A stretch of 64,000 bases of DNA from Dehalococcoidia bacterium (GCA_963663895.2 CAXXRD010000003.1:64001-128000); one strand, 5' to 3'; positions 17,860 to 38,259 are shown, numbered from the stretch's first letter. A program made the numbers and translations. Notes: generated from the sequence alone by a model not told the origin.

Positions 17860-18453
17860 TTAATCACCCGAGGTTGGTGCGAGTTCTTGGTCTTTCATCT
17901 CCTCGGGCGGGTGGTAGTAGCAGTAGGGCTCCTTCTCCGCCCAGTCGAGCGTGAAGAGCATCTTGGCCCAGCCGACGTCGACGCAGAGAACCACGGCGAG
18001 CTCCGCGATCTGCGCGTCGCTGTAATGCTCCTGCATCTGCGCCCATAGGTCCTCATCGACCTCGCCGTAAGGATCCGTAAGGGCCATCTTGCTGGCAAAG
18101 CGCAGGGCCGCCTTCTCGGCCTCGTCGAAGGGACCGTTCTCGAAGTCGTCGAGGGCGTCGATCTGCTCTTGGGTCACGCCGTTCCGCTTCGCCGAAGCGG
18201 AGTTGATCGTGTTTCAGAAATGGCAGCCGTGCAGCTTCGAGAGCCGAAGCTGCGTCATCTCCTTGATCTTGATGGGGACGACGCCGCCGTAGAAGAGCTT
18301 GGCGTAGAAATCCTCCCACAGGAACTTGCTGACGTGCGGCGCGTTGGCGATGAACTCGATCCAACGAGTATCGAGGCCGACGGCGCGGCAATCGTCGAGC
18401 CACTGCTGTTCGTGCTCTTGCATCTCCTCGCGGGGTACGCGCCGCAGGGCCAT
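17860..18453 (-). CDS. AhpD/carboxymuconolactone-decarboxylase-family selenoprotein (CxxU, Sec80)
   Basis: Track ORFs 18214-18453 and 17860-18177 are in frame across TGA 18214-18216: LSKLHGCHF-U-NTINSAS...EKAALRFA; hairpin downstream; 197 aa. Confidence 0.85.
18183..18201 (-). promoter_or_regulatory. SECIS-like hairpin
   Basis: UCCGCUUC-GGC-GAAGCGGA, 12 nt after UGA; CACG/CGUG lower stem. Confidence 0.7.
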
Positions 18454-18577
18454 GGCTTCCTCCTCTTCCCTTGCTCAAGCAGGGCGGATGACTGGTAGTC
18501 ATGCTGATCGTGGCGCGTTAGCGTGGCATGTCAAGGTCGTGACGCGGGTCACAGACGCTCTTTGGAGATGGATGGGG

Positions 18578-19783
18578 ATGGACTTCGGATTTTCAGCGGA
18601 GGACCAGGCGTTTCGGGAGGAGGTGACGGCCTTCGCCCAGGAGGCGCTGCCCGCGGACTGGGGCGAGCGGGCGGCCGGGATCAACCCGTTCGAGCAGAGC
18701 ACGGAGGGAGAGGGGAGCGGCGACGCGGCCTGGGAGCTAATGCGGGGTTTCCAGTCGAAGCTGGCCGAGCGGGGCTGGCTGGCGCTGGCCTGGCCCAAGG
18801 AGCACGGCGGTGCAGGGGCCAGCTTCGTGCGGCAGGCGCTGTTCACAGAGACGATGGCAGAGCTGCGGGCGCCCGTCTACAACCAGGGGATCGACCGGGT
18901 CGGGCCGACGATCATGCAGTTCGGAACACCGGAGCAGCAAGCGCGGCTGTTGCCGCCCATCCGGGACGGCGATCTGTTCTTCTGTCAGGGATTCAGTGAG
19001 CCCGGGGCGGGCAGCGATCTCGCGTCCGCCAGGACCCGAGCGGCTCGCGACGGCGACGACTACGTGATCAACGGACAGAAGATCTGGACCTCGTACGCCC
19101 ATCGGGCGGAGCGGATGTTCCTCCTCGCCCGCAGCGATCCCCACGCACCGAAGCACAAGGGCCTGTCGTACTTCGTTCTGGAGATGGACACGCCGGGAAT
19201 CAGCGTGAAGCCGCTGGTGGATCTGGCGGGGCGGCACCATTTCAACGAGGTCTTCTTCGAGGACGTCCGGGTGCCGGCGGCCAACCGGATCGGCGAGGAG
19301 AACGCGGGCTGGTATGCGGCGGCGGCTTCGCTGGACTTCGAGCGATCGGGGATCTACCGGGTCGTCGGGGCGATCCGGACGCTGCACGAGATCACCGCGC
19401 TCGCGAAGCAAGCGGGAGCGGACGGCCGGCGCGCGGTCGACGACGACCGCATCCGGCACCGGCTGGCAGAGCTCCACATCGAGTTCGCGGCTGGGCGGCT
19501 GCTGGCCTATCGGGTCGCATCGCTGTTGGACGCGGGGGAAGCGGCGGGGAACGCGGCGAGCGTGAGCAAGCTGTTCGGGTCGGAGCTGCAGCAACGGCTC
19601 GCAGGAATGCTCAATCTCATGGGGCTGCCGGGGCAGTTGGGAGCCGGAAGCGCCTGGGCGCCGCTGGAAGGGCGCTTGGCGTACGAGTACCTGATCGGCG
19701 TACAACTGACGATCGCGGCCGGAACGAGCGAAATTCAGCGGAACATCATCGCGAGGCGGAGGCTCGGCCTGCCCAGGGAATAG
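18578..19783 (+). CDS. Acyl-CoA dehydrogenase
   Basis: MDFGFS start, CQGFSEPGAGSDLAS, NGQKIWTS, GTSEIQRNIIA. Confidence 0.92.
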   Translation: MDFGFSAEDQAFREEVTAFAQEALPADWGERAAGINPFEQSTEGEGSGDAAWELMRGFQSKLAERGWLALAWPKEHGGAGASFVRQALFTETMAELRAPVYNQGIDRVGPTIMQFGTPEQQARLLPPIRDGDLFFCQGFSEPGAGSDLASARTRAARDGDDYVINGQKIWTSYAHRAERMFLLARSDPHAPKHKGLSYFVLEMDTPGISVKPLVDLAGRHHFNEVFFEDVRVPAANRIGEENAGWYAAAASLDFERSGIYRVVGAIRTLHEITALAKQAGADGRRAVDDDRIRHRLAELHIEFAAGRLLAYRVASLLDAGEAAGNAASVSKLFGSELQQRLAGMLNLMGLPGQLGAGSAWAPLEGRLAYEYLIGVQLTIAAGTSEIQRNIIARRRLGLPRE

Positions 19784-19859
19784 GCCTGCGGAGCGAAAGC
19801 GCAGACCTGTGCCCGGGCGCTGACCGTCGCCTCGGCGACCATTCGCTGTTCGACTTCCG

Positions 19860-20189
19860 TTAACCGCGGCGATGGCGCAGGTAGACGTTGGCGAGCGACC
19901 CCCACGATGCGACGCAGAAGGGGACAAGGTAGGTCAAGGGGATTTTCCAAGCGAGGCTGGGGGAGAAGTCGCCCGCGAAGAGGGCAGGACCTTGGTTGAT
20001 GAGAATGAGAATGGTGCCGACGACGATCGCGGTCAGGACGGATCGCCGCAGCATGCGCCGGTCGCCAAGGGCGCAAGCTGTGCACTTGAGGACGATGGCG
20101 CCATCCGGGCGAGGCATCCGGAAGACGCGCGTCGCCACGTACTCTTGGCCCGTGAGATGTGGGCAAGCCGAGCCCGGTGTGACGCGCAT
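19860..20189 (-). CDS. nrtS: NrtS-like small membrane protein
   Basis: AIVVGTILILINQG...LTYLVPFCVASWG. Start uncertain. Confidence 0.7.
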   Translation of the reverse strand: MRVTPGSACPHLTGQEYVATRVFRMPRPDGAIVLKCTACALGDRRMLRRSVLTAIVVGTILILINQGPALFAGDFSPSLAWKIPLTYLVPFCVASWGSLANVYLRHRRG

Positions 20190-20219
20190 GCGCGGTTGCT
20201 ATCCAGCGCGACGGGGCGG

Positions 20220-22235
20220 CTAGCCGCCTCCGTCTTCGGCTTCGGGAATCGCTCCGGGTACCTCCTCCTCACCTGAGGCGGCGTCAGCGTCGTCCGGCGA
20301 GGCAGCGTCGGTCTCTTCCCGCGCACGATCGAATACGGAAGCATCCGCCGGAAGCATCCGCGATTCCGGATATTCCGGGTTGCTGCTATCGATCCAGGAT
20401 TTATCGAAGTGATGGGCGGACCACGCGAATTCCAGGGCGCGCTCGTCGGTGAAGAGATACGGCCGGGCGATGCCGATCTGGATCCCGTTCGTGATGTTGA
20501 CGAGCCAGAAGGGATCATCCAGGAAATGCTGCTGGATTTGGCGGGCACGCGTGCGGCGGGCGCTGGCATCGAACGTGCTCCGCATCTGCTCGATCAGCTC
20601 GTCGACGGCAGGGTTGCTATAGCCTCCCCAATTGGCGCCTCCTTCGCTGTGCGCGATGTCGAGCCAGTGGCTGCTGGGGTCCGCCTCGGATTGCTGGAGC
20701 GGGAGGGGTCCGAGGCCGATAAAAGCGGCCACGGTCTTCTCCCGCACGCCGGTGAACAAGGCGTCGTAGGTCAGGAAATCGATGTCGATCGCGAGCCCGA
20801 GATTCCGCTCCAACATCGCTTGGATGGTGTCGGCGATGCCAGGAAAGATGCCCTGAAAGATGTCTGGCACCACGAGCGGCACGCGGCCGATTTGGGCAGC
20901 GCCGCCGGCGGCGCTGACCAAGGCGTTGATCTCCGCGCGATCATCCGCTTTGTCGGGGCGGTAGCCGGGAACTTCCAGCAAGTCGGCCTCCGGGATCGCC
21001 CACTTCGGGAAGAACCAGGGGATGGGGCCGGAAAGGCGGCCATCGCCAAAGTAGAGGGCATCGATCAGCTCAAAGCGATCAATGGCGAGGTGCATGGCGC
21101 GAGCCAACCGCGCATCCGCCAGAGGATTGCGCTCACCGGCAGCGCCGTCGAAGACCATGCCGAGCTGGATCGCGCTTTGGATAGGGCGCTCGTAGGCGGT
21201 GTGGTGCGGAAAATCGGCGCGGAGCTCATCAATGGCGGCTTTGCCCAAGGGGAAGTCGACGGCGTCGATCTGCCCATCGCGGTAGGCGGCCGCCGCAGTG
21301 GCTGCGTCGACGTGAACGAAGGTCCAGCCTTCCGGGTAAATGGGAAGATCCGGCTTCCACCAATTGGCGGAGCGGCGGATCTGAAAGGAGTTGTCGCGGC
21401 TGAAGCTCGCCGGTAGATAAGGGCCGCTGCCTGCGTTGAGCGAGGGATCGTCGGGCGCGTCCCGCCAATCATCGCCGAATTCTTCGGCCGCTTCGGCGCC
21501 GATGATCCAGGCCCACGGGCCGGCGTGCACGTTGGTGAGGTAGGTCGCGTCGGGCTCCTCAGTGCTGAGGCGGATCGTGTGCTCGTCGCTCACCTCCAGC
21601 GTCGCGGTGCGGGTGTAGGCCGCCTGGCGGAAGAAGAAGGGATCGGGAAGGTCTTCCGCGTCCCGTGCCTCGATCTGCCGCTGGATGGTGAACCGCACAT
21701 CCTCGGCGGTGACGCTACGGCCTTCCATGGGCGGCGTCTCCCAGAAGCGCGCAGCCGGGTTGACGCGGAAGATGTAAGTAACCTCGTCCGGGATCTCGGG
21801 GAGCGTGGCGGCCAGATCGGCTTCCAGCGTGCCCCGCGAGATCGACTCCCAGCGAAGGAGGCGGCTGTACATGGTGCTGAGCCACGTCTGCGTCTCGCTG
21901 TAGCGGCTGCGGTGCGGGTCCCACCGGTCGTGCCCTTCGTAGGTGACTTGGGCAGGCCAACCGATGATGCCGCCTTGGACAGGGTTGGGGGGGAGGAGCA
22001 CGGGCGCTGCTTCGTCGGGTGCCGCCTCCTCAACTGTGGGCGTCTCCGGTGGAGTCGTGGCCGGAGTTTGGAGTGGCGCTTGCTCATCGGGAGGTTGCTC
22101 CACCGCGTCCTCGTCGCCATCTTCGCCGCAGCCCACAAGAGCCAGAGCGGAGGCGCCGACGCCGGCGGCGGCGGCGGCGCGGAGGAGCGCGCGCCTGGAG
22201 AGGCGCGTACGACGGTCGGCGGGTAGTCGATTCAT
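20220..22235 (-). CDS. ABC family-5 solute-binding lipoprotein (Tat)
   Basis: LSRRALLR Tat motif plus LVGC lipobox; ADLA..PE, VTAEDV.F, GSGPY motifs. Confidence 0.88.
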   Translation of the reverse strand: MNRLPADRRTRLSRRALLRAAAAAGVGASALALVGCGEDGDEDAVEQPPDEQAPLQTPATTPPETPTVEEAAPDEAAPVLLPPNPVQGGIIGWPAQVTYEGHDRWDPHRSRYSETQTWLSTMYSRLLRWESISRGTLEADLAATLPEIPDEVTYIFRVNPAARFWETPPMEGRSVTAEDVRFTIQRQIEARDAEDLPDPFFFRQAAYTRTATLEVSDEHTIRLSTEEPDATYLTNVHAGPWAWIIGAEAAEEFGDDWRDAPDDPSLNAGSGPYLPASFSRDNSFQIRRSANWWKPDLPIYPEGWTFVHVDAATAAAAYRDGQIDAVDFPLGKAAIDELRADFPHHTAYERPIQSAIQLGMVFDGAAGERNPLADARLARAMHLAIDRFELIDALYFGDGRLSGPIPWFFPKWAIPEADLLEVPGYRPDKADDRAEINALVSAAGGAAQIGRVPLVVPDIFQGIFPGIADTIQAMLERNLGLAIDIDFLTYDALFTGVREKTVAAFIGLGPLPLQQSEADPSSHWLDIAHSEGGANWGGYSNPAVDELIEQMRSTFDASARRTRARQIQQHFLDDPFWLVNITNGIQIGIARPYLFTDERALEFAWSAHHFDKSWIDSSNPEYPESRMLPADASVFDRAREETDAASPDDADAASGEEEVPGAIPEAEDGGG

Positions 22236-22382
22236 AGGTAGCAGCGAGCGCGCCCTTCACGGTCTTGCGGTAGGGACCTAGCGTACCGGCCCTGCAGACC
22301 ACCTGCACGGCGGCGGACGGGCGCAGCCTTTATCATCGTGGTCGGCTGAGCACCATCGAGAGAAGGATTCGGAGACGGCAAC

Positions 22383-23357
22383 ATGGCGAAAAAGCGGCTC
22401 GAGGGCAAGGTGGCGATCGTCACCGGGGCAGGCAGCGGGATCGGGCGTGCGGTAGCGCTGCTCTTCGCGGAGCATGGCGCCAAGGTGGTCGTGAACGACT
22501 ACGGCGGGCCGCCCAACGAGGTGGGGGAGCAGAGCAGCGAGCCGGTGGAGCGGGTGGTCGCCGAGATCCAAGCGATGGGCGGGCAAGCGGTTGCGAACGC
22601 CGGGAATGTGGCCGAGATGGCGACGGGCGAGCAAATGGTGCAGCAAGCGATCGATGCCTTCGGCCAAGTGGATATCGCCGTCTGCTGTGCGGGGATCCTG
22701 CGTGAGCGCATGGTGTTCAACATGACGGAGGCCGAATGGGACGATGTCGTCGCCGTGCACCTGAAGGGCCACTTCGCCCTGACCAAGTATGTCTCGCAAG
22801 TCTTTCGGCAGCAGCGCAGCGGCCGTCTGATCTTCATCTCTTCGAACGCGATGTTCGGGGCGCCGGGGCAGCCGAACTACGCAGCAGCGAAAGGGGGCGT
22901 GTGGTCATTCATGCGCTCCTGTGCGAACGCGCTCGGACGCTATAACGTGACCTGCAACGCGATCCTGCCGGCGGCCTCGACCCGGCTGATGGATCGAACG
23001 CCGCAGGCGATGAAACAGCGGCAAGAGCAAGGAATCGTGGCGTCGGAGGCGAACGCGGGGACGCGCCGGGACCCCATCAACGTCGCGCGCTGGATTCTGT
23101 ACCTCGCATCCGACGAGGCACAGGAGGTGACGGGGCAAGCCTTCGGCGTGCGAGGATACGATGTGATCCTGTACAGCCACCCGCATGAAAAGTTCCTCAT
23201 GCGCAGCGACGACGACCAAGCCTGGGACGTCGACCAACTGTTCCAGCGGGCTGAAGCGCAAATGCGGCCTCGCTTGGAAGACCCCAATCTGGGGCGAGGC
23301 GGAGATATCGGCGCCTACGCGGTGGCAGTGGAAGGCGACGCACGGCCGGGGCTCTAG
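22383..23357 (+). CDS. SDR oxidoreductase
   Basis: TGAGSGIG, NYAAAK. Confidence 0.9.
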   Translation: MAKKRLEGKVAIVTGAGSGIGRAVALLFAEHGAKVVVNDYGGPPNEVGEQSSEPVERVVAEIQAMGGQAVANAGNVAEMATGEQMVQQAIDAFGQVDIAVCCAGILRERMVFNMTEAEWDDVVAVHLKGHFALTKYVSQVFRQQRSGRLIFISSNAMFGAPGQPNYAAAKGGVWSFMRSCANALGRYNVTCNAILPAASTRLMDRTPQAMKQRQEQGIVASEANAGTRRDPINVARWILYLASDEAQEVTGQAFGVRGYDVILYSHPHEKFLMRSDDDQAWDVDQLFQRAEAQMRPRLEDPNLGRGGDIGAYAVAVEGDARPGL

Positions 23358-23421
23358 CGGCTCGGTGCGGCTAGACGCAATCGCCCGCGCGGGGTCATAC
23401 TGCCCTACAGAGGAGCGACCG

Positions 23422-23769
23422 ATGGACCAGCTGATGGGGAAACTGCTGCGGGATCTGACGCAGGTGCTGCAGTGGTTTATGCGCCAGCCGCTTTATATCA
23501 AGGCGGCCGTTGTGGTCCCGGCAATGATTGTGCACGCGGTCCTGTTCGTGGTCGTGAACGCGATCGCGGTCAACCTTGGCGCGGGAAACCAGCACTTGAG
23601 CTCCAACGCGAACGGCTTCGACCAGTGGCTGATCTGGATCATCGTCGGCGTCGGGCTGGTACTGGGCCTCGGATTGGGCGGCTTTATCTACTTCGGCGCA
23701 CGCAAGGGTGGCGGCTCGGAGCCATACGACCAAGCCGATCAGGGTGAGACGGGGATGCTCGAGGTCTAA
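23422..23769 (+). CDS. Hypothetical 2-TM membrane protein
   Basis: AGGAG SD before ATG 23422; two hydrophobic helices. Confidence 0.65.
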   Translation: MDQLMGKLLRDLTQVLQWFMRQPLYIKAAVVVPAMIVHAVLFVVVNAIAVNLGAGNQHLSSNANGFDQWLIWIIVGVGLVLGLGLGGFIYFGARKGGGSEPYDQADQGETGMLEV

Positions 23770-23792
23770 GCGACCCGCCCCGGCGATGAAGC

Positions 23793-23816
23793 GAAAGCCC
23801 GCGCAGGCGGGCTTTC
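23793..23816. terminator. Bidirectional intrinsic terminator-like hairpin between convergent genes
   Basis: GAAAGCCCGC-GCAG-GCGGGCTTTC. Confidence 0.7.
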
Positions 23817-23848
23817 TTGCTGACAGCGTTGCCGTGCAACTCCCTGCA

Positions 23849-24811: not shown

Positions 24812-24816
24812 CGCGG

Positions 24817-25776: not shown

Positions 25777-25921
25777 GACCGGGGCAGTATGGCCGATGCG
25801 GATCGGTGCCGCTAGTCATGTGGAACCGCCCACGTGGTCCTCGGATGATCGCCCGGATCAGTGACGATTGGCGAGCCGCCCCAAAGCCTCCGAAGGCGCT
25901 GCGTCTCGCGCGGCGTGTCGA

Positions 25922-25950
25922 TTGACAGATCGAATTTAACGTTAAAGAAT
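25922..25950 (+). promoter_or_regulatory. Promoter TTGACA-17bp-AAGAAT with perfect palindrome TTTAACGTTAAA
   Basis: TTGACA 25922-25927; palindrome 25935-25946 in an otherwise GC-rich region. Confidence 0.5.
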
Positions 25951-25988
25951 GTAATCAGTTTGGTGGCTGGGCTTCCCGAGGAGCCCGT

Positions 25989-26330: not shown

Positions 26331-26411
26331 GCAGGAACCTCTCGCCCTCTCCCGGGCGCAGCGGCCTGCGTAGCGGCTGCTCGCATCCCGCGAGACGGGT
26401 AGCATCAGCGC

Positions 26412-27636: not shown

Positions 27637-28371
27637 ATGGCTTGGCTCTGGCCTAAGCGCGCATCGCGACCCAAGCGGAAGGATGCTCCCGTGCTAGCCG
27701 CACGAGGGCTCAGTCGCAGCTTCCGAGTGGGGGCAAGTGACGTGCAGGCGCTGCGCGCCGTGAATCTGGAGGTCCGAGCGGGCGACTTCGTCGCCGTGGT
27801 GGGACCGAGCGGGAGCGGGAAATCGACCCTCCTGCACCTACTAGGCTTGATCGACTCACCCTCGCGTGGAGAGGTACGACTGCAAGACGAGCCAACGGGG
27901 CGGCTCGGCGAGGAGGCACGGGCCAAGCGCCGACTCAACACCGTGGGGTTCATCTTTCAGACCTTCAACCTGCTGCACTCGCTGACGACCCGCGAGAACG
28001 TGGAGATCGTGTTGCAACTGGCAGGAGTACCGAAGGACGAGCGGCGCAAGCGCGCCGAGGCCCTGCTGCGGACGGTGGGGCTGGGAGAGCGTTTGCAGCA
28101 TCGCCCTGCGAGCCTCTCGGGCGGAGAGCGCCAGCGGGTCGCGATCGCACGGGCGCTCGCGAACCAGCCGGCGGTGCTCCTTGCCGACGAGCCAACCGGG
28201 AATTTGGATTCTAAGACGGGCGAAGAGGTAGTTGCGTTGCTGGAGGAGCTGAATGCGGGTGGCCAGGCTGTGGTGATGGTGACCCACAACGCGGCCCTGG
28301 CGCGGCGGGCCAAGCGGGTGTTCGCCATGCACGACGGCGAGCTTCGCGAGGTGACCGGGGAACCGGCCTGA
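27637..28371 (+). CDS. LolD/MacB-type ABC ATPase
   Basis: GPSGSGKS, LSGGERQRVAIARAL, LADEPTGNLD. Confidence 0.93.
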   Translation: MAWLWPKRASRPKRKDAPVLAARGLSRSFRVGASDVQALRAVNLEVRAGDFVAVVGPSGSGKSTLLHLLGLIDSPSRGEVRLQDEPTGRLGEEARAKRRLNTVGFIFQTFNLLHSLTTRENVEIVLQLAGVPKDERRKRAEALLRTVGLGERLQHRPASLSGGERQRVAIARALANQPAVLLADEPTGNLDSKTGEEVVALLEELNAGGQAVVMVTHNAALARRAKRVFAMHDGELREVTGEPA

Positions 28372-28452
28372 TGCCGAGAGTCGCGTTGACCCTGGCGCCC
28401 CCCGGCTCATAGGCTCAGGCTTTCTCTCACAGATCCGACTCAGGAGGCGGGC

Positions 28453-29400
28453 ATGCGGATCGCGATCATCGGGCAGGCAGCGTTCGGCGCGGCGGTCTAT
28501 GAGCGGTTGCGCGGTGACGGGCACGAGATCGTCGGCGTGTTCACGGCGCCGGAGACGGGCCGCCCCGATTCCCTCGGCGAGGCCGCGCGTCGCGACGACG
28601 TCCGCGTCGAGCAGCCCGCGCGCTGGCAACGCAAGGGAATCGTGGATGCCGACGTCTTCGAGACCTACACCTCGACCAAGCCGGATCTCAACGTGATGGC
28701 TTTTGTCACACAGATCATCCCGAGCCAGGTTCTGGACTTCCCGCCGCAAGCGACGATCCAATACCACCCCAGCTTGCTGCCCAAGCATCGGGGACGGAGC
28801 GCGATCAACCACGCGATCGTGCAAGGGGATACCGAAACCGGCTGCACGATCTTCTGGGTGGACGCCGGGATCGATACGGGGCCGCTGCTGCTCCAGAAAC
28901 GCTGTGCGATCAGCGAGGACGACACCGTGAACAGCCTCTATCGCGAGCGGCTGTTTCCCATGGGAGTGGAGGCGCTGACCGAGGCGGTGAGGCGCATAGC
29001 GAAGGGCGAGGCGCCGCGGATCGCGCAAGATGAGAGCCAGGCGACTTACGAAGCACCTTGGGAAGGCGATGTCGCGCGCATCGACTGGACCCAAGCCGCG
29101 CCGCGGGTGCACGACTTCATCCGTGGGAGCGACCGGCAGCCGGGAGCGTGGTCGACTATCGCCGTGCCGGCGGGAGACGCCGTCAAGGTGACGCTCTACG
29201 GATCACGGAAGGCGGAGCCCGATGAGGAAGCGCAAGGAGAGCCGGGAAGCATCCTCGCCGTGGAAGCCGCAGGCCTCACGATTCGCTGCGGCCGGGGAGC
29301 CGTGCGGGTGGACACGGCGATGGTGGAAGGCGGGAAGTGGGTACCGGCGGCCGAGTGGGCCGCGGCAGCGGGTGTGACGCCGGGAACGCTACTGACCTAG
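28453..29400 (+). CDS. Formyltransferase (Fmt/10-formyl-THF hydrolase, ALDH1L N-domain-like)
   Basis: MRIAIIGQAAFG, YHPSLLPKHRGRSAIN, DAGIDTGP. Confidence 0.85.
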   Translation: MRIAIIGQAAFGAAVYERLRGDGHEIVGVFTAPETGRPDSLGEAARRDDVRVEQPARWQRKGIVDADVFETYTSTKPDLNVMAFVTQIIPSQVLDFPPQATIQYHPSLLPKHRGRSAINHAIVQGDTETGCTIFWVDAGIDTGPLLLQKRCAISEDDTVNSLYRERLFPMGVEALTEAVRRIAKGEAPRIAQDESQATYEAPWEGDVARIDWTQAAPRVHDFIRGSDRQPGAWSTIAVPAGDAVKVTLYGSRKAEPDEEAQGEPGSILAVEAAGLTIRCGRGAVRVDTAMVEGGKWVPAAEWAAAAGVTPGTLLT

Positions 29401-29560
29401 CTCCTCGCGAGGCCATCCGGCGTGCACTGCTCCATCGCACGAGTCCAAGCGGATGGATCCGGCAGCATGCCTGATACCCTACCCATGCCGTGATCGCTGT
29501 AGCGTCTGGCCGGCGCCGTGCCGCGCGATGCAGTCAATAGCGGTGTAAGGAGTCGCTGGA

Positions 29561-30469: not shown

Positions 30470-30597
30470 CGCCGGCCATAGGGAGACTGCTCGCGAACTC
30501 GCACCACAGGGCCCCGCGATGCCTGGCCGGTGGTGAGGAGCGCTCCTAGAATTCTGGGTGCGCTTCGGACATCCGGACGGAGTGCCGGGAGATCAGC

Positions 30598-32499
30598 ATG
30601 GCAGACTCTACGGGCGGGGAATTCCGCGGTCTATTGGACGCAGGCGAGAGGGTTGCGCCGGTCGCGGCGACCCGACTCAATGCCATTTTGCCCGACTGGC
30701 GTACGGCCTATGAGGCGGCAGACGCCGACAGCGATGCCTACTGGGCGAGAGTCGCGCGCGAGTTGACTTGGATCGCGCCGTGGCGGGAGCTGCGGGTCGA
30801 CGACGGGCACAACCACACGGAGTGGTTCGCGGGATCGCGCTGCAACATCACACAGAACGTGTTGGACCGGCACCTCGAAGGACCCAATCGCACCAAAACG
30901 GCGCTGATCTGGGTGAGCGAGGAGGGCGAGGAGCGGCACTTCACTTTCGAGGAGCTGGCGCGGTTCGTGAATCGATTCGCCAATGTGCTGCGCCAGGCTG
31001 GAGTGAAGAAGGGGGACCGTGTCTGTATCTACATGCCGCTGACGCCCGAAGGCATGGCAGCCATGCTGGCCTGCGCGCGTATCGGCGCCATCCATTCGGT
31101 GGTGTATGCAGGACTCGCGGCAACGGCCCTGCGGTCGCGAATCGAGGACGCAGGTGCGACGGCGCTGATCGTCGCCGACCAAGGCTTTCGGCGAGGGAAG
31201 ACGGTTGACTTGTGGTCGATCGCGAGCGAGGCGCTCTCCGGGGAAACGCCCGTGCGGCGGGTGATCCTGCACCGGCGGAGCTCCGAGACGGCGCTGCCGC
31301 GAGGAGCGATCGATCTCGTCCCGGCACTGGCAGACGCGTCCGCCGAAGCGGAGGCAGAGCCGATGGAAGCCTCGGACCCACTGTTCATCCTCTACACGTC
31401 GGGAACCACGGGGACGCCGAAGGGCGTGGTCTATCCGCATGCGGGCTACATGGTCGGCGTGGCGCGCAACACGAGGATCGCCTACAACCTGAAGCCGGAC
31501 ACCGTCTACTGGTGCACGAGTGATATCGGTTGGATCGTAGGGCACTCGTGCATCGTCTACGGACCCTGGATCAACGGCGTGACGCAGGTGGTGCGCGAGG
31601 GAGCGCCGGACTACCCGGATCCCGGCGTCGTCTGGTCGATCATCGAGCGGTACGCCGTGACGACGCTGTTCACGGCACCTACCGCGCTGCGAATGTTCAT
31701 GCGGTTCGGCGGGGAGTATCCGGTGAAGCACAACCTCGACAGCCTCACGATCCTGATCTGTGCGGGCGAGCCGCTCAACCCGGAGGCGCAGATCTGGGCC
31801 TACCGGCATGTCATGCAGGATCGCGGGCCGGTCTGCGATAACTGGTGGCAGACGGAGACCGGGGGACCGACGCTGGGGACCCTGCCCGCGGACGTCGCCA
31901 AGATCGGGCGCGTCGGGCGGCCGCTGCCCGGCGTGCGCGCGGAGGTCGTGGACCGGGAAGGGAAGCCCGTCCCGGACGGGCACGGCGGCTTCCTGGTTCT
32001 CCAGAACAACTGGCCCCACATGCTGCAGACGATCTGGAACAACGACGCGCGCTACCAGGAGTACTACAGCCTGATCCCGGGCGTGTACACGGCGGGCGAT
32101 GTCGCGACGCGGGATGGCGACGGTTACTTCGCGGTGCTGGGACGCGCCGACGACGTCTTGAACGTGGCGGGGCACCGGATCGGCACAGCCGACGTTGAAA
32201 GCGCACTGGTGTCACACCCCGCGGTGGGAGAAGCGGGCGTGATCGGAATCCCCGACGCGATCAAGGGCGAGGAGATCAAGGCCTTCGTGGTGCTGCGAGC
32301 GGGATCCCAGCCGAGCGATACCCTCCACAAGCAGCTATTCGAGCAGGTGCGCAACACGCTGGGGCCGATCGCGACCCCCAAGGCGATCGACTTCGTACCC
32401 GCGCTGCCGAAGACGCGGAGCGGCAAGATCATGCGCCGGGTGCTGAAGGCGCGGGAGCTGGGCATCGACCCCGGGGACCTGACCACCCTCGAGGACTAG
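30598..32499 (+). CDS. acs: Acetate--CoA ligase
   Basis: YTSGTTGTPKG, WWQTETGG, PKTRSGKIMRR. Confidence 0.92.
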   Translation: MADSTGGEFRGLLDAGERVAPVAATRLNAILPDWRTAYEAADADSDAYWARVARELTWIAPWRELRVDDGHNHTEWFAGSRCNITQNVLDRHLEGPNRTKTALIWVSEEGEERHFTFEELARFVNRFANVLRQAGVKKGDRVCIYMPLTPEGMAAMLACARIGAIHSVVYAGLAATALRSRIEDAGATALIVADQGFRRGKTVDLWSIASEALSGETPVRRVILHRRSSETALPRGAIDLVPALADASAEAEAEPMEASDPLFILYTSGTTGTPKGVVYPHAGYMVGVARNTRIAYNLKPDTVYWCTSDIGWIVGHSCIVYGPWINGVTQVVREGAPDYPDPGVVWSIIERYAVTTLFTAPTALRMFMRFGGEYPVKHNLDSLTILICAGEPLNPEAQIWAYRHVMQDRGPVCDNWWQTETGGPTLGTLPADVAKIGRVGRPLPGVRAEVVDREGKPVPDGHGGFLVLQNNWPHMLQTIWNNDARYQEYYSLIPGVYTAGDVATRDGDGYFAVLGRADDVLNVAGHRIGTADVESALVSHPAVGEAGVIGIPDAIKGEEIKAFVVLRAGSQPSDTLHKQLFEQVRNTLGPIATPKAIDFVPALPKTRSGKIMRRVLKARELGIDPGDLTTLED

Positions 32500-32577
32500 T
32501 CAGTCTGGATCGGGGCGCCGCGCTAGTATGGGCGCCGTTGCTCCGAGCGCAGCGAACGCAGTGAAGGGAAGCGGCAC

Positions 32578-33552
32578 ATGGCGCCGACGGGCCGGCCGAT
32601 TGAGTTTGGGATCCAAACCAACCTGCACCAGACGACGTTCGACGAGGTGCTCTCGACCTGGCAGGTCGTGGAGCGGGAGGGGTTGGACCACGCCTGGACG
32701 TACGACCACCTGATGCCACTGTTCTCGAACCCGGAGGGCCCGAACCTGGAGGGCTGGACCACGCTGGCCGCGCTGATGGTGCAAGTGCCGCGCATCCGTG
32801 CGGGGGTGCTGGTGCCCTGCAACCCGTTCCGGCCACCGATCGTGACGGCCAAGATGGCGGTCACGATCGACCAGTTGAGCGAGGGGCGCCTCGAGATGGC
32901 GCTGGGGGCGGGCTGGTGGGAGCCGGAGTTTCGGCACTACGGGATCGAATGGGCACCGCTGCCGGAGCGGCTGGCGCAGATGGACGAAGCGATCCAGGTC
33001 ATGCAGTCGCTATGGACGCAGGACCGGACGACCTTTGAGGGGACCTACTACACGATCCGGGACGCACCGTTCCAACCGAAACCGGTGCAACAGCCGCACC
33101 TGCCTCTCTGGATCGGCGGCCGGGGGAAGAAGTACACGCTGCGCATGGCGGCGAAATACGCGGACGGCTGGAACGTTTGGACGCTGCCGCGCGAGGACTA
33201 CCTGGAGCGGCTCGCCCTCCTCGACCAGTACTGCGAGCAAGCGGGGCGGGACCCGAAGAGCGTGCGGCGCTCTCTGGCGGCACGGATGCGCATCGACAGG
33301 AGCAGCGAGGCGGCACGGGCGGCGATGCTGGCAGAAGGCACGGCTGGCGGGGAAGAGCTGCCGGAGGGCTTCGAGGAGTTGATCAACCAGGCGCTCGCAG
33401 GGTCACCGGAGGAGATCGCGGAGCAGATCGGAGAGTTTGCGGAGCTGGGCGTCGATCATATCGTCCTGCTGATGGACCCTCCCTACGATCAAGAAGGCCT
33501 GACCCGTTTCGCACGCGAGGTGGTGCCTCTGGTGCGCGCGGCGGGGTTGTGA
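32578..33552 (+). CDS. LLM-class (probable F420-dependent) oxidoreductase
   Basis: WTYDH, EGWTTLAAL, DQLSEGRL..GAGW, PKPVQQPH. Confidence 0.9.
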   Translation: MAPTGRPIEFGIQTNLHQTTFDEVLSTWQVVEREGLDHAWTYDHLMPLFSNPEGPNLEGWTTLAALMVQVPRIRAGVLVPCNPFRPPIVTAKMAVTIDQLSEGRLEMALGAGWWEPEFRHYGIEWAPLPERLAQMDEAIQVMQSLWTQDRTTFEGTYYTIRDAPFQPKPVQQPHLPLWIGGRGKKYTLRMAAKYADGWNVWTLPREDYLERLALLDQYCEQAGRDPKSVRRSLAARMRIDRSSEAARAAMLAEGTAGGEELPEGFEELINQALAGSPEEIAEQIGEFAELGVDHIVLLMDPPYDQEGLTRFAREVVPLVRAAGL

Positions 33553-33554
33553 TC

Positions 33555-34811
33555 ATGATGGCCGAAGCCAAGCCGGTCGACGGCACGACCCCGCAATACC
33601 TGCGCGACAAGTACGCGATCATCGGCGTGGGGGAGACCCCGTTCATGCGCGGCTCGGGCAAGACCACACGAGCGCTGGGAACCTGGGCGATCCGGAACGC
33701 GATCGCGGACGCCGGAGTTGATCCGGGCGAGATCGACGGAATGCTGTCGTATTCCATCGGAGACTCGACGGCGACTCCCTTCGTCGCCGGCGACCTCGGT
33801 ATCCGGTTGAATTTCTACATGGACTGTTTCGGCGGCGGGAGCAGCACGGAGGCCTTGCTCGGGCTGGCGATCGGCGCCATGGAAGCGGGCATGTGCAAGA
33901 TGGTGTGCATCTACCGGGCGATGAACGGCTACTCCGGAAGGCGGATCGGAGCAACCGGCCGGACGCCGGCGACCATCTCCGGCGACGGCTTGCACATGGC
34001 TCCCTATGGCTTCTTCAGCGCCGGACAGCGTTTCGCTTTCACCTTCATGCGCCACATGTACGACTACGGCACCACGCCGGAGCAGGTCGCCATGGTGAAA
34101 GTCATCCATAGCGAGCACGCCTCGAACAACCCCAAGGCGCTCTATCCCCGCCGCGTGACGGTCGACGACGTGCTCTCGAGCCGCATGATCGTAAAGCCGC
34201 TGCACCTGCTGGACTGCTGTCTGGAGACGGATAACGGCACGGCGATCATCGTGACCAACGCACGGCGCGCCTACGACTACCGGCACACGCCAGCGCGCGT
34301 GCTGGGGGTGGTGGGACGTTGCAACTGGCCGCGGATGGACATGCACTACCAGCACGGCCCGATCTCATCGTGGGCCGCTCGCTACGCCAGCAAGATCCTG
34401 TGGCCGAACGCGGGGCTGGGGCCGGAGGAGATCGACGTGACGGGCGCCTACGACGCCTTCACCTTCACGACGCTGCTGGGACTGGAAGACTTCGGCTTCT
34501 GTGAGAAGGGCGCCGGCGGGGAGTACGTCAGCAGCGGCGTCATGCGCCTGGGCGGCGCGCGCCCCAACAACACGAGCGGCGGGCATCTCTGCGAGGGCTA
34601 CACCCACGGGATGAACTTGGTGATCGAGAACGTGCGCCAATTGCGCGGCGAGATCGACGATTCCTGTCCTGTCGGCGCGAACGGCAATCCCGAGCACAGC
34701 TACGACTATCGCACAGGCGGCTGCCGCCAGGTGAAGGATGTGGCGGTGACGGCCAACATCGGCTGGGCGGGGCCGATCACATGCTCCGCGGCAGTCCTAC
34801 GGAAAGGATAG
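33555..34811 (+). CDS. SCP2-type thiolase/lipid-transfer protein
   Basis: AIIGVGET, LLDCCLETD, YDAFT, NTSGGHL. Confidence 0.88.
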   Translation: MMAEAKPVDGTTPQYLRDKYAIIGVGETPFMRGSGKTTRALGTWAIRNAIADAGVDPGEIDGMLSYSIGDSTATPFVAGDLGIRLNFYMDCFGGGSSTEALLGLAIGAMEAGMCKMVCIYRAMNGYSGRRIGATGRTPATISGDGLHMAPYGFFSAGQRFAFTFMRHMYDYGTTPEQVAMVKVIHSEHASNNPKALYPRRVTVDDVLSSRMIVKPLHLLDCCLETDNGTAIIVTNARRAYDYRHTPARVLGVVGRCNWPRMDMHYQHGPISSWAARYASKILWPNAGLGPEEIDVTGAYDAFTFTTLLGLEDFGFCEKGAGGEYVSSGVMRLGGARPNNTSGGHLCEGYTHGMNLVIENVRQLRGEIDDSCPVGANGNPEHSYDYRTGGCRQVKDVAVTANIGWAGPITCSAAVLRKG

Positions 34812-34813
34812 CC

Positions 34814-35332
34814 GTGACCGTCACCGGGACGTATTTGGGAATGAGCCTGGCGATTCCCGAGAACGATGAGCAGAACCGGGCGTACTTCCACTACTGCGCG
34901 GCGCATGATTTCCGGCTGCAGCGATGTGGCGGCTGTCATCTGCTGCGCTATCCACCCACGACGGGATGCCCTTGGTGCATGGGCACGGAGTCGGAATGGC
35001 ACCCCGTGGAAGGGAAAGGAGCGGTGCACTCGTACGGCGAGGTGCATCATGCGATCCAGCCGGCCTGGAAGGCCCACACGCCCTACCTGTTCCTCTTGGT
35101 CGACTTGGATACCCAGAAGGGCGCCCCCACGGAGCACGACGCGCTGCGCGTGCTGGCGAACCTCGTGACCGCCGATGGACAGCCGGCGCCGCCCGATCTC
35201 GTGAGGCAGGTGGGGATTGGAACGCGGGTGCGCATGGTGTTCGTAGACGCAGGCGAAGGGATCGCCATCCCTCAATGGACGATCGACCAGGATGCGGAAC
35301 AGCCCCCGCCCTGGCGCTACCCGCAGGAGTGA
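34814..35332 (+). CDS. DUF35/ChsH2 Zn-ribbon OB-fold protein (thiolase partner)
   Basis: QRCGGC...YPP...CPWC, then OB fold; directly follows the thiolase. Confidence 0.88.
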   Translation: MTVTGTYLGMSLAIPENDEQNRAYFHYCAAHDFRLQRCGGCHLLRYPPTTGCPWCMGTESEWHPVEGKGAVHSYGEVHHAIQPAWKAHTPYLFLLVDLDTQKGAPTEHDALRVLANLVTADGQPAPPDLVRQVGIGTRVRMVFVDAGEGIAIPQWTIDQDAEQPPPWRYPQE

Positions 35333-35736
35333 CGACGCGGCACCGTGGAGCCGGGCTAGGGCTCGGACTTGTCCTGTTGGTCGCGATGGCAGGCTGCTTC
35401 GGCGGCGAGCGGGGCGACATCACGCTGGGGTACGCGGTCGAGACCCGGCTCGCGCAGCAGCCCGTCACCGAACGAGTGGAGGGCTCAGTCACAGCGGGAC
35501 GTGAGTTTTTCGTGCGCTTGCAGGTCCCGGAGCCACGCGCCGAAGCGTTTGTGACGTTGCGGGCCGCGCGGCGGGTGGGAGGCTCATTCCAGCCGTTGAT
35601 CGAGTTCGACCAGCCCGTTTCGCCTCCCTGGCGAGTGGTAGTGATTCCGCTGACCTTGGAGCGGCGAGGGGAATGGTTGGTCTCAGTCTTCGCCAACTCA
35701 CGCAAGCTCACGGATGCCGAGGTGGACGTGGAGTGA
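35329..35736 (+). CDS. Hypothetical lipoprotein
   Basis: GTGA overlap with upstream stop; hydrophobic signal ending MAGC. Confidence 0.6.
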   Translation: MTTRHRGAGLGLGLVLLVAMAGCFGGERGDITLGYAVETRLAQQPVTERVEGSVTAGREFFVRLQVPEPRAEAFVTLRAARRVGGSFQPLIEFDQPVSPPWRVVVIPLTLERRGEWLVSVFANSRKLTDAEVDVE

Positions 35737-35767
35737 GTGGTATCGTCGGCGCCGTAGGGAGACGCGT

Positions 35768-37393
35768 ATGCGAGCAATTACCGAGATCGGCGCAGAGCTG
35801 GGGCTGGCGCCCGATGATCTGGAGCAGTATGGGCCGTATAAGGCAAAGCTGAGCGCCGCCACTCTGGAGCGCTTGCGCTCCAAAGAACAGGGCCAGCTGG
35901 TCCTTGTCACTGGGATGACGCCCACAACCGCGGGCGAAGGCAAGACGACGACATCGATCGGGTTGACGCAGGGCTTACGGCGGCGCGGGGTTGGGGCGAC
36001 GGTGTGCCTGCGGGAGCCGTCGATCGGACCGGTGATGGGGATCAAGGGCGGGGGGACCGGCGGAGGTGGCGCGCAACTGCTGCCCGCAGATGAGATCAAC
36101 CTGCACTTCACGGGCGATCTGCACGCCGTGACGGCAGCCAACAATCTGCTGGCTGCGGCTGTAGACGCCTCGATCTTCCACGGCAACCCGCTGGGTCTCG
36201 ATGTACGCCGGGTGACGTGGCGGCGTTGCCTGGATATCAACGATCGCGCGCTGCGGCACGTCGTAGTGGGGCTCGGAAATGCGCCGGACGGCGTGCCGCG
36301 GCAAGAGGGATTCGCCATCACTCCCGCCTCGGAAGTGATGGCCATCCTATCGATTGCATCGGATTTCGAGGACCTGCATCGGCGGCTCGGCGCGGTGATC
36401 GTGGGTTACACCCGCGATTTCACGCCGGTGCGGTGCACGGAGATCGGGGTGGACGCCGCCATGGCGGTGCTGCTGCGTCAGGCGGTGCGGCCCAATCTGG
36501 TGCAAACCAGCGAAGGAGCACCTGCACTCGTGCACGGCGGGCCATTCGCGAACATCGCGCTGGGCTGTAACAGCATCGTGGCGACTCGGGCTGCGCTCGC
36601 GCTCTCCGAAGTCGTCGTGACGGAAGCAGGGTTCGGGAGCGATCTCGGGGCCGAGAAGTTCCTCAATGTCGTATCGCGCTTCGGCGAATTGCAGCCACAG
36701 GTCGCGGTGATCGTCGCAACCGCGCGGGCAATCAAGCGCCACGGCGGCCGGGATGCAGCGGCGTTGGAGGTCGAAGACTTGGAGGCGCTGGCGGTCGGAT
36801 TGGCGAACCTCGACGCACATATCGACAACATGGAGCAGCATGGGTTGACGCCGGTCGTCGCTGTGAATCGCTTCCCGAGCGACACCGACGCGGAGATCAT
36901 CACGGTAGTCGAGCACTGCGCCAAGCGGGGCGTGCGGGCCACGCCTCTGTCGCCGTACGACGGCGGCGAAGCGTGCCTGGATCTGGCGGACGCGGTGCAG
37001 GATGCTTTGGCAGCGGGTCGAGGGAGGCTGCAACCACTCTACGTAATGGAGCGCCCGATCAGGGAAAAGATCGATGCGGTAGCGCGAGCAGTGTATGGAG
37101 CGGATGGCGCGGTCTATCAGGGAACGGCGGAGCGGACGATCGAACGGGCAGAGCGCATGGGCATGGCGGCACTACCGATCTGCGTCGCCAAGACCCAGTA
37201 CTCGCTTTCGGACGATCCCGCCTTGATCGGCAGGCCAAAGGGACACGCCCTCCACGTGCGGGAGGTGCGGCCGGCGGCAGGAGCCGAGTTCCTCGTGATC
37301 ATTGCCGGAGACATCATGACGATGCCGGGACTGCCGAAGGTCCCTGCAGCGACGAAGTTCTCGACGGCAGAGGGGGCCGGACTTCCGGTATAG
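35768..37393 (+). CDS. fhs: Formate--tetrahydrofolate ligase
   Basis: TPTTAGEGKTTT, GIKGGGTGGG, HGGPFANIA, KTQYSLSD, MTMPGLP. Confidence 0.95.
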   Translation: MRAITEIGAELGLAPDDLEQYGPYKAKLSAATLERLRSKEQGQLVLVTGMTPTTAGEGKTTTSIGLTQGLRRRGVGATVCLREPSIGPVMGIKGGGTGGGGAQLLPADEINLHFTGDLHAVTAANNLLAAAVDASIFHGNPLGLDVRRVTWRRCLDINDRALRHVVVGLGNAPDGVPRQEGFAITPASEVMAILSIASDFEDLHRRLGAVIVGYTRDFTPVRCTEIGVDAAMAVLLRQAVRPNLVQTSEGAPALVHGGPFANIALGCNSIVATRAALALSEVVVTEAGFGSDLGAEKFLNVVSRFGELQPQVAVIVATARAIKRHGGRDAAALEVEDLEALAVGLANLDAHIDNMEQHGLTPVVAVNRFPSDTDAEIITVVEHCAKRGVRATPLSPYDGGEACLDLADAVQDALAAGRGRLQPLYVMERPIREKIDAVARAVYGADGAVYQGTAERTIERAERMGMAALPICVAKTQYSLSDDPALIGRPKGHALHVREVRPAAGAEFLVIIAGDIMTMPGLPKVPAATKFSTAEGAGLPV

Positions 37394-37410
37394 GTCCCGA
37401 AAGCAACCCT

Positions 37411-38259
37411 CTAGCTCGTTGTCCCTGCCTCCGTTTCGATCGGGCGGTCGAGGGCGTTGCCGTACTCATGCCAGGAGCCGTCGTAAACCTGGATCTCGTT
37501 GTAGCCGAGGAGCCGAAGGACGAACAGTCCGTGCGCCGCACGGATGCCGCCCTGTCAGTAGGTCGTGACGCGTTTCTCCGGCGTCACGCCTAAGCCATCG
37601 AGCTCGGTACGGATCTCCGCCGGCGGGCGAAGCGTGCGCACAGGCTCGTTGAGGAGCTTCAACCACTCAAGGTGCACCGCGCCGGGGATGCGACCGCCGC
37701 GCTTCGTTCCGCGCTTGTTGGCGCCGGTCCATTCACCGTCGGAGCGAACGTCCCAGAGGATCACGTTGGGGTCCTCGGCCGCGCCGGCGACATCGGCGAT
37801 GCCGCAGGTCCAGTGGTTGCTCTGCGCGCCCGGCCTGTAACTCTTGCGCTTGGGACGGTAGTTCTCACGCGAGAGCGGTCGACCGTCCGCCACCCACTGA
37901 TCCAGGCCGCCGTCGAGCAGCATGGCGTTGGTATGACCGTAGCGATCAAGGGTCCACCAGAAGCGGGCAGCGAAGACGCCTCCGGAACCGTCGTAGGCAA
38001 CGATGGTGTCGTCATTGCCGATGCCCATCTTGCCGAGGTGCTCAGCAAACTTATCGCCGTCGATGCCGAAGAGATCGGTATCGTTGCCGTCGCCTTTCCA
38101 GTAGCGGGAGCGAGCGGCAACGGCACCGGGAATGTGGAGACGCTGGTAGGCCGGCAGCAGGTCGCAATCAACGACAACGACGTTGTCGTCAGCAACATGT
38201 TCAGCGACCCAATCGCTCGTGGTCAGAAGCTCGGGGTGGGCCCAGCCCTGGTCAGTCAT
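37411..38259 (-). CDS. Tandem-domain rhodanese/sulfurtransferase selenoprotein (Sec235)
   Basis: TGA 37555-37557 sits at the catalytic Cys position: TTY-U-QGGIRAAH. Frame continues LRLLGY...YDGSWHEY to TAG at 37411; 282 aa. Confidence 0.88.
37528..37544 (-). promoter_or_regulatory. SECIS-like hairpin
   Basis: UCCGUGC-GGC-GCACGGA, 10 nt after UGA; CAG/CUG lower stem. Confidence 0.7.

Follow-up and report, generated by a model that had tools for sequence, protein, structure and literature searches.

Two SECIS-type hairpins with a matching apex and stem base in unrelated selenoprotein genes of a Dehalococcoidia bacterium

Two unrelated genes within a 64,000-nucleotide stretch of DNA from a Dehalococcoidia bacterium (the window, on which all positions are given) each contain an in-frame UGA followed by a short hairpin, and the hairpins resemble each other in loop, closing pair, and stem base. 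The question raised by this locus is whether the resemblance represents a recognition consensus for SelB particular to this group of bacteria and usable for mining its selenoproteome, as the original prediction proposed. Our answer, given with good but not full confidence, is that each hairpin is a canonical bacterial SECIS element, independent of the other and lying in a gene of a known selenoprotein family, and that the UCCG/CGGA identity between them is most likely coincidental.

Two genes with in-frame UGA codons

The first gene (gene 1; 17860..18453, minus strand), translated with TGA as selenocysteine (Sec, U), encodes a CMD/AhpD-like selenoprotein of 197 codons and ends in TAA. Its in-frame UGA (Sec80; 18214..18216, minus strand) occupies a conserved Cys position within the motif GCHFU (CxxU). 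The Pfam CMD domain (PF02627) extends over residues 46-120, bridging U80, and Sec replaces the second Cys of CxxC: in an alignment with the three full-length homologs found in the protein collection (38-44% identity), U80 corresponds to an invariant second Cys (GCHFU vs. GCNTC). GC3 was 0.87 upstream of the TGA and 0.84 downstream. Scores fell below the cut-offs of the NCBIfam YciW-related (seleno)protein equivalog NF053654 (68 bits against 310) and of TIGR01926 (22.5 bits against 81.8), and gene 1 is a member of neither. The SECIS upper hairpin (18183..18201, minus strand; UCCGCUUC GGC GAAGCGGA) has a stem of 8 bp that begins 12 nt past the UGA and a GGC triloop that lies 20 nt past it. The upper hairpin alone folded at -11.0 kcal/mol; the MFE fold reached -16.2 kcal/mol (z -1.58), with 12 of 200 shuffles as stable. 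A lower stem beneath the upper hairpin (together 18175..18211, minus strand) is predicted from a single-sequence fold only, without comparative support.

The second gene (gene 2; 37411..38259, minus strand) comprises 282 codons, ends in TAG, and encodes a two-domain rhodanese selenoprotein of the 3-mercaptopyruvate/thiosulfate sulfurtransferase-like kind, with active site UQGGIRAA. Its UGA (Sec235; 37555..37557, minus strand) also lies at a conserved Cys position. The Pfam Rhodanese domain (PF00581) was matched at 7.4e-34 and bridges the TGA, with Sec at the catalytic Cys; matches to NCBIfam 3-mercaptopyruvate sulfurtransferase (107 bits, cut-off 250) and rhodanese_LYCAU (19 bits, cut-off 115) fell below threshold. 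Among 31 aligned homologs from the protein collection, 25 end exactly before the TGA, the kind of truncated ORF as which both genes are prone to be annotated, and six are full length with Cys. U235 corresponds to the Cys of CQGGIRAA in those six and in eight Cys-form loci. The hairpin (37528..37544, minus strand; UCCGUGC GGC GCACGGA, with a conserved core, CCGUGC GGC GCACGG, at 37529-37543) pairs UCCGUGC with GCACGGA in a 7 bp stem around the triloop GGC; the stem starts 10 nt, and the loop 17 nt, past the UGA. Alone it folded at -9.9 kcal/mol, and the MFE fold reached -25.2 kcal/mol (z -2.08; 4 of 200 shuffles as stable). Composition stays coding-like past the TGA in both genes, and in each the coding sequence immediately past the in-frame UGA, which aligns with Cys, contains a hairpin.

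Comparison of the two hairpins

Both hairpins were found as first described, on the minus strand and each behind an in-frame TGA. They have in common the GGC loop, the C-G closing pair, and the UCCG/CGGA base, and their loops do lie one codon apart relative to the UGA (20 nt in gene 1, 17 nt in gene 2). The short bulged lower stem that had been reported for both was recovered in both single-sequence folds, but 73 rhodanese sequences showed no conservation of it. The inner stems are unlike in both sequence and length (CUU/AAG in gene 1, UG/CA in gene 2), the flanks are without similarity, and the two genes are 19 kb apart, with ordinary metabolic genes between them.

The pattern TCCG-N(2-6)-CGGCG-N(2-6)-CGGA occurred three times in the window, against a mean of 0.72 in shuffled sequence (at least three matches in 4 of 100 shuffles). 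The third of these, at 19266-19289 on the plus strand, falls within an acyl-CoA dehydrogenase ORF that has no interruption, and it is no hairpin of the SECIS kind. The background set consisted of 4090 other triloop hairpins with stems of at least 7 bp in 1.47 Mb. CGGCG was the commonest triloop apex in this set (75/4090, 1.8%), a TCCG base was present in 22 (0.54%), and the two occurred together in one unrelated hairpin. Because the joint match is so rare, pure chance is not a comfortable explanation; as judged from a single post-hoc comparison, a chance match of both apex and 4-nt base is unlikely.

The comparison with true stops favored the original prediction. Among long coding-like ORFs, a C-GGC-G hairpin 16-37 nt past the stop followed 2 of 751 ended by TGA, 1 of 711 ended by TAG, and 1 of 282 ended by TAA, as against 63 of 64 Sec rhodaneses. 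No T run follows either hairpin, no Rfam family was matched, and no tRNA-Sec, selA, selB, or selD was found within the window.

The rhodanese hairpin in relatives

The rhodanese active-site codon in 80 related loci was TGA in 72 and TGC or TGT in eight, with the downstream reading frame conserved. The core of the gene 2 hairpin was identical in 70 of 73 Sec-form rhodanese genes. By record title, these genes came from 49 Chloroflexota/Dehalococcoidia/Chloroflexia MAGs, 19 Binatia MAGs, and single MAGs labelled Methylomirabilota, Deltaproteobacteria, Gemmatimonadetes, and Enterobacteriaceae, phylum assignment being that of the MAG record labels. The identical core was present under all of the non-Chloroflexota labels, and its identity across several phylum labels therefore ties the hairpin to the gene family, not to a lineage.

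Constraint at the RNA level was specific to the TGA forms. Their third-codon positions +14, +17, +20, +23, and +26 were fixed in 71-72 of 72 loci, whereas the flanking third positions +8, +11, +29, +32, and +35 varied. In the eight Cys forms, third positions inside the hairpin region were variable, the residues were IRAAQA, not IRAAHG, and no triloop hairpin of at least 6 bp was found at the hairpin site (0/8). Positions +14 and +26 were C in 71 of 72 TGA forms, and the wobble options allowed there by both pairing and coding were never used, which could reflect sequence-specific recognition beyond the loop. Covariation in the stem was nil. The outer U-A pair had A as partner in only 58 of 72 loci, and the consensus fold of the family (73 sequences) comprised only the 6-bp core, without a lower stem. 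Three variants were seen: a GUC loop in L060, a G·U pair in L067, and in L079 another stem altogether (CAGCGCA-GUC-UGCGCUG), displaced downstream by 6 nt; these keep function-like features without keeping the sequence. The relative L001, at 93% nucleotide identity, offered 20.8 kb without extra Sec genes.

Other selenoprotein genes of relatives

SECIS elements of the other Sec genes were diverse. The sole Sec ortholog of gene 1 found (L038; 36% identity, GCPFU, CMD domain spanning U80) has UCUGCC-GUA-GGCAGA after a 12-nt spacer, as in gene 1, with another stem and another loop; L038 also has the standard rhodanese hairpin. A Sec peroxiredoxin (Prx; FTGGUT, AhpC-TSA over residues 5-129) was present in 15 Dehalococcoidia loci, all with the rhodanese hairpin, and all distant from the window's genome (about 60% protein identity). 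Its SECIS is a two-part stem starting 16 nt past the UGA, with a loop of 6-8 nt at about +33; covariation in the stem was weak (one double change). The C-GGC-G apex and UCCG base occurred in none of the 15 (0/15). Absence of the motif from other Sec genes, which the original prediction had named as counting against it, thus holds for these relatives. Scanning 1.47 Mb for the strict motif added no Sec gene and passed over the sites in Prx, L038, L060, and L079.

Interpretation

In the reading as two independent canonical elements, each is a short G+C-rich hairpin within the coding sequence, starting 10-12 nt past the in-frame UGA. By the established bacterial mechanism, SelB·GTP·Sec-tRNA(Sec) would bind the hairpin while the ribosome is at the UGA, and the bound complex would cause selenocysteine to be inserted in place of termination; we infer such binding and read-through at both UGAs. 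The gene 1 hairpin would serve a CMD/AhpD-like redox protein (CxxU) and the gene 2 hairpin a rhodanese sulfurtransferase (UxxG), in a Chloroflexota relative of the MAG COS3_bin_3. The identical C-GGC-G apex is the commonest form taken by a pan-bacterial rule in which a base pair closes a G[G/U]N loop, and the common UCCG/CGGA base is most likely a coincidence in a G+C-rich genome. That these are SECIS-type hairpins behind genuine Sec codons, as first proposed, is borne out by the TGAs at conserved Cys positions, the Pfam domains bridging them, and the synonymous sites frozen in TGA forms only.

The lineage-specific consensus itself was not supported. In that explanation, which we consider unlikely, the SelB of this Chloroflexota group recognizes a UCCG base, C-GGC-G apex, and CGGA, both genes have converged on this signal, and the motif can be used for mining. 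Nine independent nucleotides are indeed common to two unrelated genes, and the stem bases lie in different codon phases, so that common amino-acid coding does not explain the match; the combination is found in just one of 4090 background hairpins, the motif is nearly absent past true stops (2/751), and the rhodanese stem lacks wobble variants. However, the rhodanese hairpin is also found, unchanged, in MAGs that bear the labels of four other groups, and the apex equals the general bacterial consensus as given in PMC13188914. Orthologs do not consistently keep the outer U-A pair or the lower stem (A in 58/72; a 6-bp core as family fold), genomes with the rhodanese hairpin also carry a Prx SECIS without the motif, and L038 has a CMD-type SECIS with a GUA loop. 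With no Sec gene gained and four kinds of site missed in 1.47 Mb, the strict UCCG...C-GGC-G...CGGA motif would be a poor mining tool. A variant that we regard as just as improbable is that SelB in this Chloroflexota clade, perhaps also in other groups with the frozen rhodanese hairpin, reads beyond the loop and prefers CCG...C-GGC-G...CGG, the rare CMD-like selenoprotein gene having convergently acquired a copy. If true, a stem-reading SelB would explain both the 9-nt match and why 70 of 73 rhodanese hairpins, at 41-96% protein identity, show no wobble or compensatory variant at all.

Descent or transfer of an RNA module, either by copying of a piece of one SECIS to the other gene or by joint horizontal transfer of the two, is very improbable. 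The 5-nt apex and 4+4-nt base are exactly identical, and the patchy cross-phylum spread of Sec rhodanese would fit horizontal transfer of the rhodanese gene, but the inner stems and flanks are dissimilar and 19 kb of ordinary metabolic genes separate the two. Moreover, the gene 1 ortholog of L038 carries a hairpin of its own at the matching place, which indicates an old, gene-specific SECIS, and the rhodanese core is still fixed in proteins down to 41-48% identity, so that recent transfer is not needed for its conservation. Least credible of all is that the TGAs are genuine stops, or lesions in pseudogenes, with incidental hairpins (terminators or chance palindromes), since the modest energy z-scores (-1.58, -2.08), the lack of an Rfam match, and the lack of Sec machinery within the window are set against coding-like composition past both TGAs, Pfam domains bridging both, a TGA occupying the catalytic Cys codon in 72 of 80 loci and a conserved frame beyond it, synonymous sites frozen in TGA forms only, and no T run after either hairpin.

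Two independent canonical elements thus remain the preferred reading. Dehalococcoidia are among the most selenoprotein-rich bacteria, according to the BSepDB paper (PMC13326102). With read-through, a sulfurtransferase and a CMD/AhpD-type redox protein would each regain a catalytic selenocysteine. The rhodanese hairpin presumably owes its fixed sequence to its overlap with the conserved active-site loop (I-R-A-A-H-G), where constraints on amino acids and on pairing are interlocked, and this interlocking with active-site codons would account for the persistence of the 15-nt core across phylum-level labels. The RNA signal would then also shape the protein sequence, with His-Gly in Sec forms and Gln-Ala in Cys forms, and the 15-nt core could be used to probe specifically, at the nucleotide level, for Sec rhodanese.

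Relation to known systems

The Escherichia coli fdhF SECIS and the Moorella SelB-SECIS complex have a minimal upper stem-loop about 11 nt past the UGA, with recognition centred on a loop G/U. Both hairpins of the window are similar in stem-loop and placement; they differ in having a bare triloop without a bulged U. The bacterial consensus of the bSECISearch model, as set out in PMC13188914, calls for a loop of 3-9 nt, a stem of 4-16 bp, N1-G[G|U]N-N2 with N1 and N2 paired, 16-37 nt from UGA to apical loop, and an MFE of -7.5 kcal/mol or lower. Both hairpins agree with every computable item (3-nt loops, stems of 8 and 7 bp, C-GGC-G, 20 and 17 nt, -11.0 and -9.9 kcal/mol); nothing measurable sets them apart from the model as described there, and the UCCG/CGGA identity lies outside it.

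The two proteins likewise fall within families already described. Rhodanese-related sulfurtransferase selenoproteins (UxxG) were first listed from the Sargasso Sea (PMC1088965) and are tabulated in PMC13188914; gene 2 resembles them in its PF00581 domain and in having Sec for the catalytic Cys in its C-terminal rhodanese domain (U-Q-G-G), and differs in its two-domain 3-MST-like form, which scores below the NCBIfam equivalog cut-offs. CMD-like/AhpD-like selenoproteins (CxxU) are also a known family (PMC1088965, PMC13188914), which gene 1 resembles in having PF02627 with CxxU replacing CxxC, although it stands outside the NCBIfam YciW-related (seleno)protein equivalog and TIGR01926. Neither a new principle of recoding nor a new family is implied.

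Sec codons and hairpins in the two genes

Two minus-strand genes in the window carry an in-frame TGA that is readable as selenocysteine (Sec, U). Gene 1 (17860-18453), a CMD/AhpD-like gene, encodes 197 residues when its TGA (18214-18216) is read as Sec. The Pfam CMD domain (PF02627) covers residues 46-120 and so bridges U80, which takes the place of the invariant second cysteine of the CxxC motif in homologs (GCHFU vs GCNTC); only three full-length homologs were found, and the alignment comprised three. Gene 2 (37411-38259) encodes a two-domain rhodanese of 282 residues, in which the TGA (37555-37557) occupies the position of the catalytic cysteine, in the motif UQGGIRAA. When 31 homologs of gene 2 were aligned, 25 terminated exactly one residue before the TGA and six were full length with cysteine; the 25 are mis-called, truncated reading frames. 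In both genes GC3 was 0.79-0.87 on either side of the TGA, such that the coding-like composition carries on past it. Gene 2 is convergent with a plus-strand gene for formate-tetrahydrofolate ligase (FTHFS, 743 bits; 35714-37393), the two stop codons lying 17 nt apart.

Both hairpins were present on the minus strand where the original prediction had placed them, and its description of them was borne out in every particular. In gene 1 the hairpin UCCGCUUC-GGC-GAAGCGGA has its stem 12 nt and its loop 20 nt from the UGA, with a folding energy of -11.0 kcal/mol for the hairpin alone; the corresponding values for UCCGUGC-GGC-GCACGGA in gene 2 are 10 nt, 17 nt and -9.9 kcal/mol. Folding of 57 nt added a bulged lower stem in each case, with modest z-scores of -1.58 (gene 1) and -2.08 (gene 2). 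The two hairpins are ordinary bacterial SECIS elements, and the genes that carry them add new members to selenoprotein families already known. By analogy with the established bacterial system, they would act as landing sites for SelB, 10-12 nt after the UGA.

Conservation of the rhodanese hairpin

The rhodanese alignment, run against species-representative genomes, yielded 80 related loci, in which the active-site codon was TGA in 72 and TGC or TGT in eight. Within the hairpin, five third-codon positions were fixed in 71-72 of the TGA-form loci, while third positions flanking the hairpin varied freely. In the eight Cys forms the same third positions were variable, the residues read IRAAQA as compared to IRAAHG in the Sec forms, and none of the eight had a triloop hairpin of at least 6 bp at the SECIS site. 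The contrast between the two forms is direct evidence of a constraint at the RNA level that is tied to the TGA, and so of a SECIS element.

The 15-nt core CCGUGC-GGC-GCACGG was identical in 70 of 73 Sec-form rhodanese genes (the 72 loci plus the window), even as protein identity to the window's rhodanese ranged from 41 to 96%. The metagenome-assembled genomes (MAGs) that carry these genes were labelled Chloroflexota, Dehalococcoidia or Chloroflexia (49) and Binatia (19), with single occurrences of Methylomirabilota, Deltaproteobacteria, Gemmatimonadetes and Enterobacteriaceae. The last of these labels belongs to a 2.8-kb contig (L031, uncultured Enterobacteriaceae) with a Binatia-like Sec rhodanese, 50% identical to that of the window and bearing the standard hairpin; the label looks like a binning error. 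Window positions 27418-48205 are collinear with locus L001, from the Chloroflexota MAG COS3_bin_3; along these 20.8 kb the nucleotide identity is 92-93%, which places the window close to that MAG, in a sister species.

The consensus fold of the 73 Sec rhodaneses consisted of the 6-bp stem alone, the window's lower stem showing no conservation in it, and the outer U-A pair was likewise loose, since just 58 of the 72 loci have A there. Exceptions within the core were a GUC loop in the rhodanese of locus L060 and a G·U pair in that of L067. In the Sec rhodanese of a Chloroflexia-labelled MAG (L079; 10670-10717, plus strand) the standard hairpin has been lost and CAGCGCA-GUC-UGCGCUG lies 6 nt farther downstream, an apparent SECIS replacement inside one gene family. 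What the rhodanese variants keep is a stable stem with a triloop of the G-first G[G/U]N type; the sequence itself is not kept.

Covariation was absent from the rhodanese stem, largely because the hairpin overlaps the codons of the active-site loop. Most of the stem is made up of first or second codon positions of Ile-Arg-Ala-Ala-His-Gly, and it is with these bases that the free third positions have to pair. Only two stem sites, +14 and +26 nt from the UGA, are free to wobble, and neither does so, a single hint of something beyond pairing. Among the by-products of the analysis, this frozen core, shared across phyla and interlocked with active-site codons, stands out most.

Other Sec genes in related loci

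When in-frame TGA codons were sought across 1.47 Mb (window plus loci) with a composition filter, 458 candidates emerged, falling into 250 clusters, and Pfam was run on the promising ones among 106 read-through candidates. A Sec peroxiredoxin with the motif FTGGUT was found in 15 Dehalococcoidia loci (L004, 1153-1611, minus strand; equivalents in L007, L009, L010, L012, L014-L019, L022, L023, L025 and L026), all 15 of which also carry the standard rhodanese hairpin, with the Sec rhodanese about 7-9 kb away. The Pfam domain AhpC-TSA (residues 5-129) spans its U, and the top NCBIfam match was PrxU, below cut-off. Its SECIS element is conserved, with a two-part stem that starts 16 nt after the UGA and a loop of 6-8 nt at about +33 to +40; neither the C-GGC-G apex nor the UCCG base occurs in it in any of the 15 loci.

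For gene 1, tblastn across the 80 loci recovered one ortholog, in a Deltaproteobacteria-labelled MAG (L038, 12656-13222, plus strand). This CMD-family protein is 36% identical to that of gene 1, with the motif GCPFU and a CMD domain that spans U80. Its SECIS element, UCUGCC-GUA-GGCAGA, has the 12-nt spacer of gene 1 but a different stem and loop, and it lies about 2 kb from a Sec rhodanese with the rhodanese hairpin. Since L038 and the peroxiredoxin loci carry the rhodanese hairpin too, one and the same SelB must recognise C-GGC-G and C-GUA-G as well as loops of the peroxiredoxin type.

A blastp search for further Sec/Cys pairs among 1149 in-frame-TGA peptides, filtered by composition from 13025 and blind to families that lack a Cys homolog within the 1.47 Mb, returned only shadow-frame artefacts besides the rhodanese (e.g. 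L036 at 16724, L022 at 6436). Locus L039 (1521-2408, plus strand) encodes an OxyR-like LysR regulator (278 bits against NCBIfam OxyR; cut-off 329) with a TGA at 2127, the position of the peroxide-sensing cysteine (DDGH-U-LRDQ). Its sole ortholog among the loci, in L037, has cysteine there, and the fold downstream of the TGA is weak; the TGA may mark a Sec-OxyR, or it may reflect an error in sequencing or a pseudogene.

Within the window itself no Sec machinery was found. A tRNA search returned no tRNA of any kind, hence no tRNA-Sec; Rfam gave no match over the whole window at gathering thresholds, and nothing or junk only around both hairpins at E up to 10. A frame with three TGAs (63279-63998, minus strand) proved to be two adjacent genes, and the epimerase/unknown (46868-48433) and ABC/formyltransferase (27637-29400) candidates are likewise separate genes with complete domains. 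A molybdopterin oxidoreductase (1650-3725, plus strand) has Fe4S4, Molybdopterin and Molydop_binding domains, and its top NCBIfam match was Fdh-alpha (275 bits vs a cut-off of 666). As it has no in-frame TGA and falls below that cut-off, it is rejected as a Sec enzyme and does not serve as an fdh case for the motif.

Frequency of the motif and the proposed lineage consensus

The motif was searched by Python descriptor scans; a MAFFT alignment of five distinct hairpins gave a structurally wrong register, and a covariance model was left aside because a lone hairpin of 15 nt is too poor in information. Window and loci together held 445 C-GGC-G hairpins with stems of at least 5 bp, 70 of them at the rhodanese site. 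By composition and translation, only two of 74 other co-occurrences of TGA and hairpin lay in a believable read-through frame, one in gene 1 of the window and the other in the variant rhodanese of L067. The motif was not equally common at true stops: it occurred 16-37 nt past the stop of long, coding-like reading frames in 2 of 751 cases for TGA, 1 of 711 for TAG and 1 of 282 for TAA, as compared to 63 of 64 Sec rhodaneses.

The original prediction read the likeness of the two hairpins (UCCG stem base, C-GGC-G apex, CGGA) as a lineage-specific SelB consensus that could be used for mining. The background set comprised 4090 triloop hairpins whose stems were 7 bp or longer; CGGCG was its commonest apex (1.8%), so that an apex shared by genes 1 and 2 is expected. 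The TCCG base occurred in 0.54% and both features together once; the additional shared UCCG/CGGA base is improbable by chance (about 1e-3 to 1e-4 before post-hoc choice) for what is one sequence pair. Every available comparison of orthologs or paralogs contradicts the shared stem base. The rhodanese core extends to MAGs labelled Binatia, Methylomirabilota, Deltaproteobacteria and Gemmatimonadetes, and the relatives' other Sec genes differ, the peroxiredoxin SECIS being without the motif and the L038 ortholog having a GUA loop. Judged on the genes of relatives, a lineage-specific consensus finds no support there and is unlikely.

Comparison with published SECIS elements and selenoprotein families

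As given in excerpts of a 2026 review (PMC13188914), the bacterial SECIS model has a stem of 4-16 bp and a loop of 3-9 nt, 16-37 nt from the UGA, with a minimum free energy of -7.5 kcal/mol or lower; the loop has G at its first two positions, for the most part in the pattern N1-G[G|U]N-N2 with N1 paired to N2. Both window hairpins agree with every item of the model so excerpted, and C-GGC-G is a literal case of its loop pattern. Rhodanese-related sulfurtransferases (UxxG), CMD-like proteins (CxxU) and AhpD-like proteins (CxxU) are among the known selenoprotein families named in excerpts of PMC13188914 and of the Sargasso Sea study (PMC1088965). An excerpt on BSepDB (PMC13326102) places two Dehalococcoidia MAGs, with 49 and 46 selenoprotein genes, among the ten most selenoprotein-rich bacteria.
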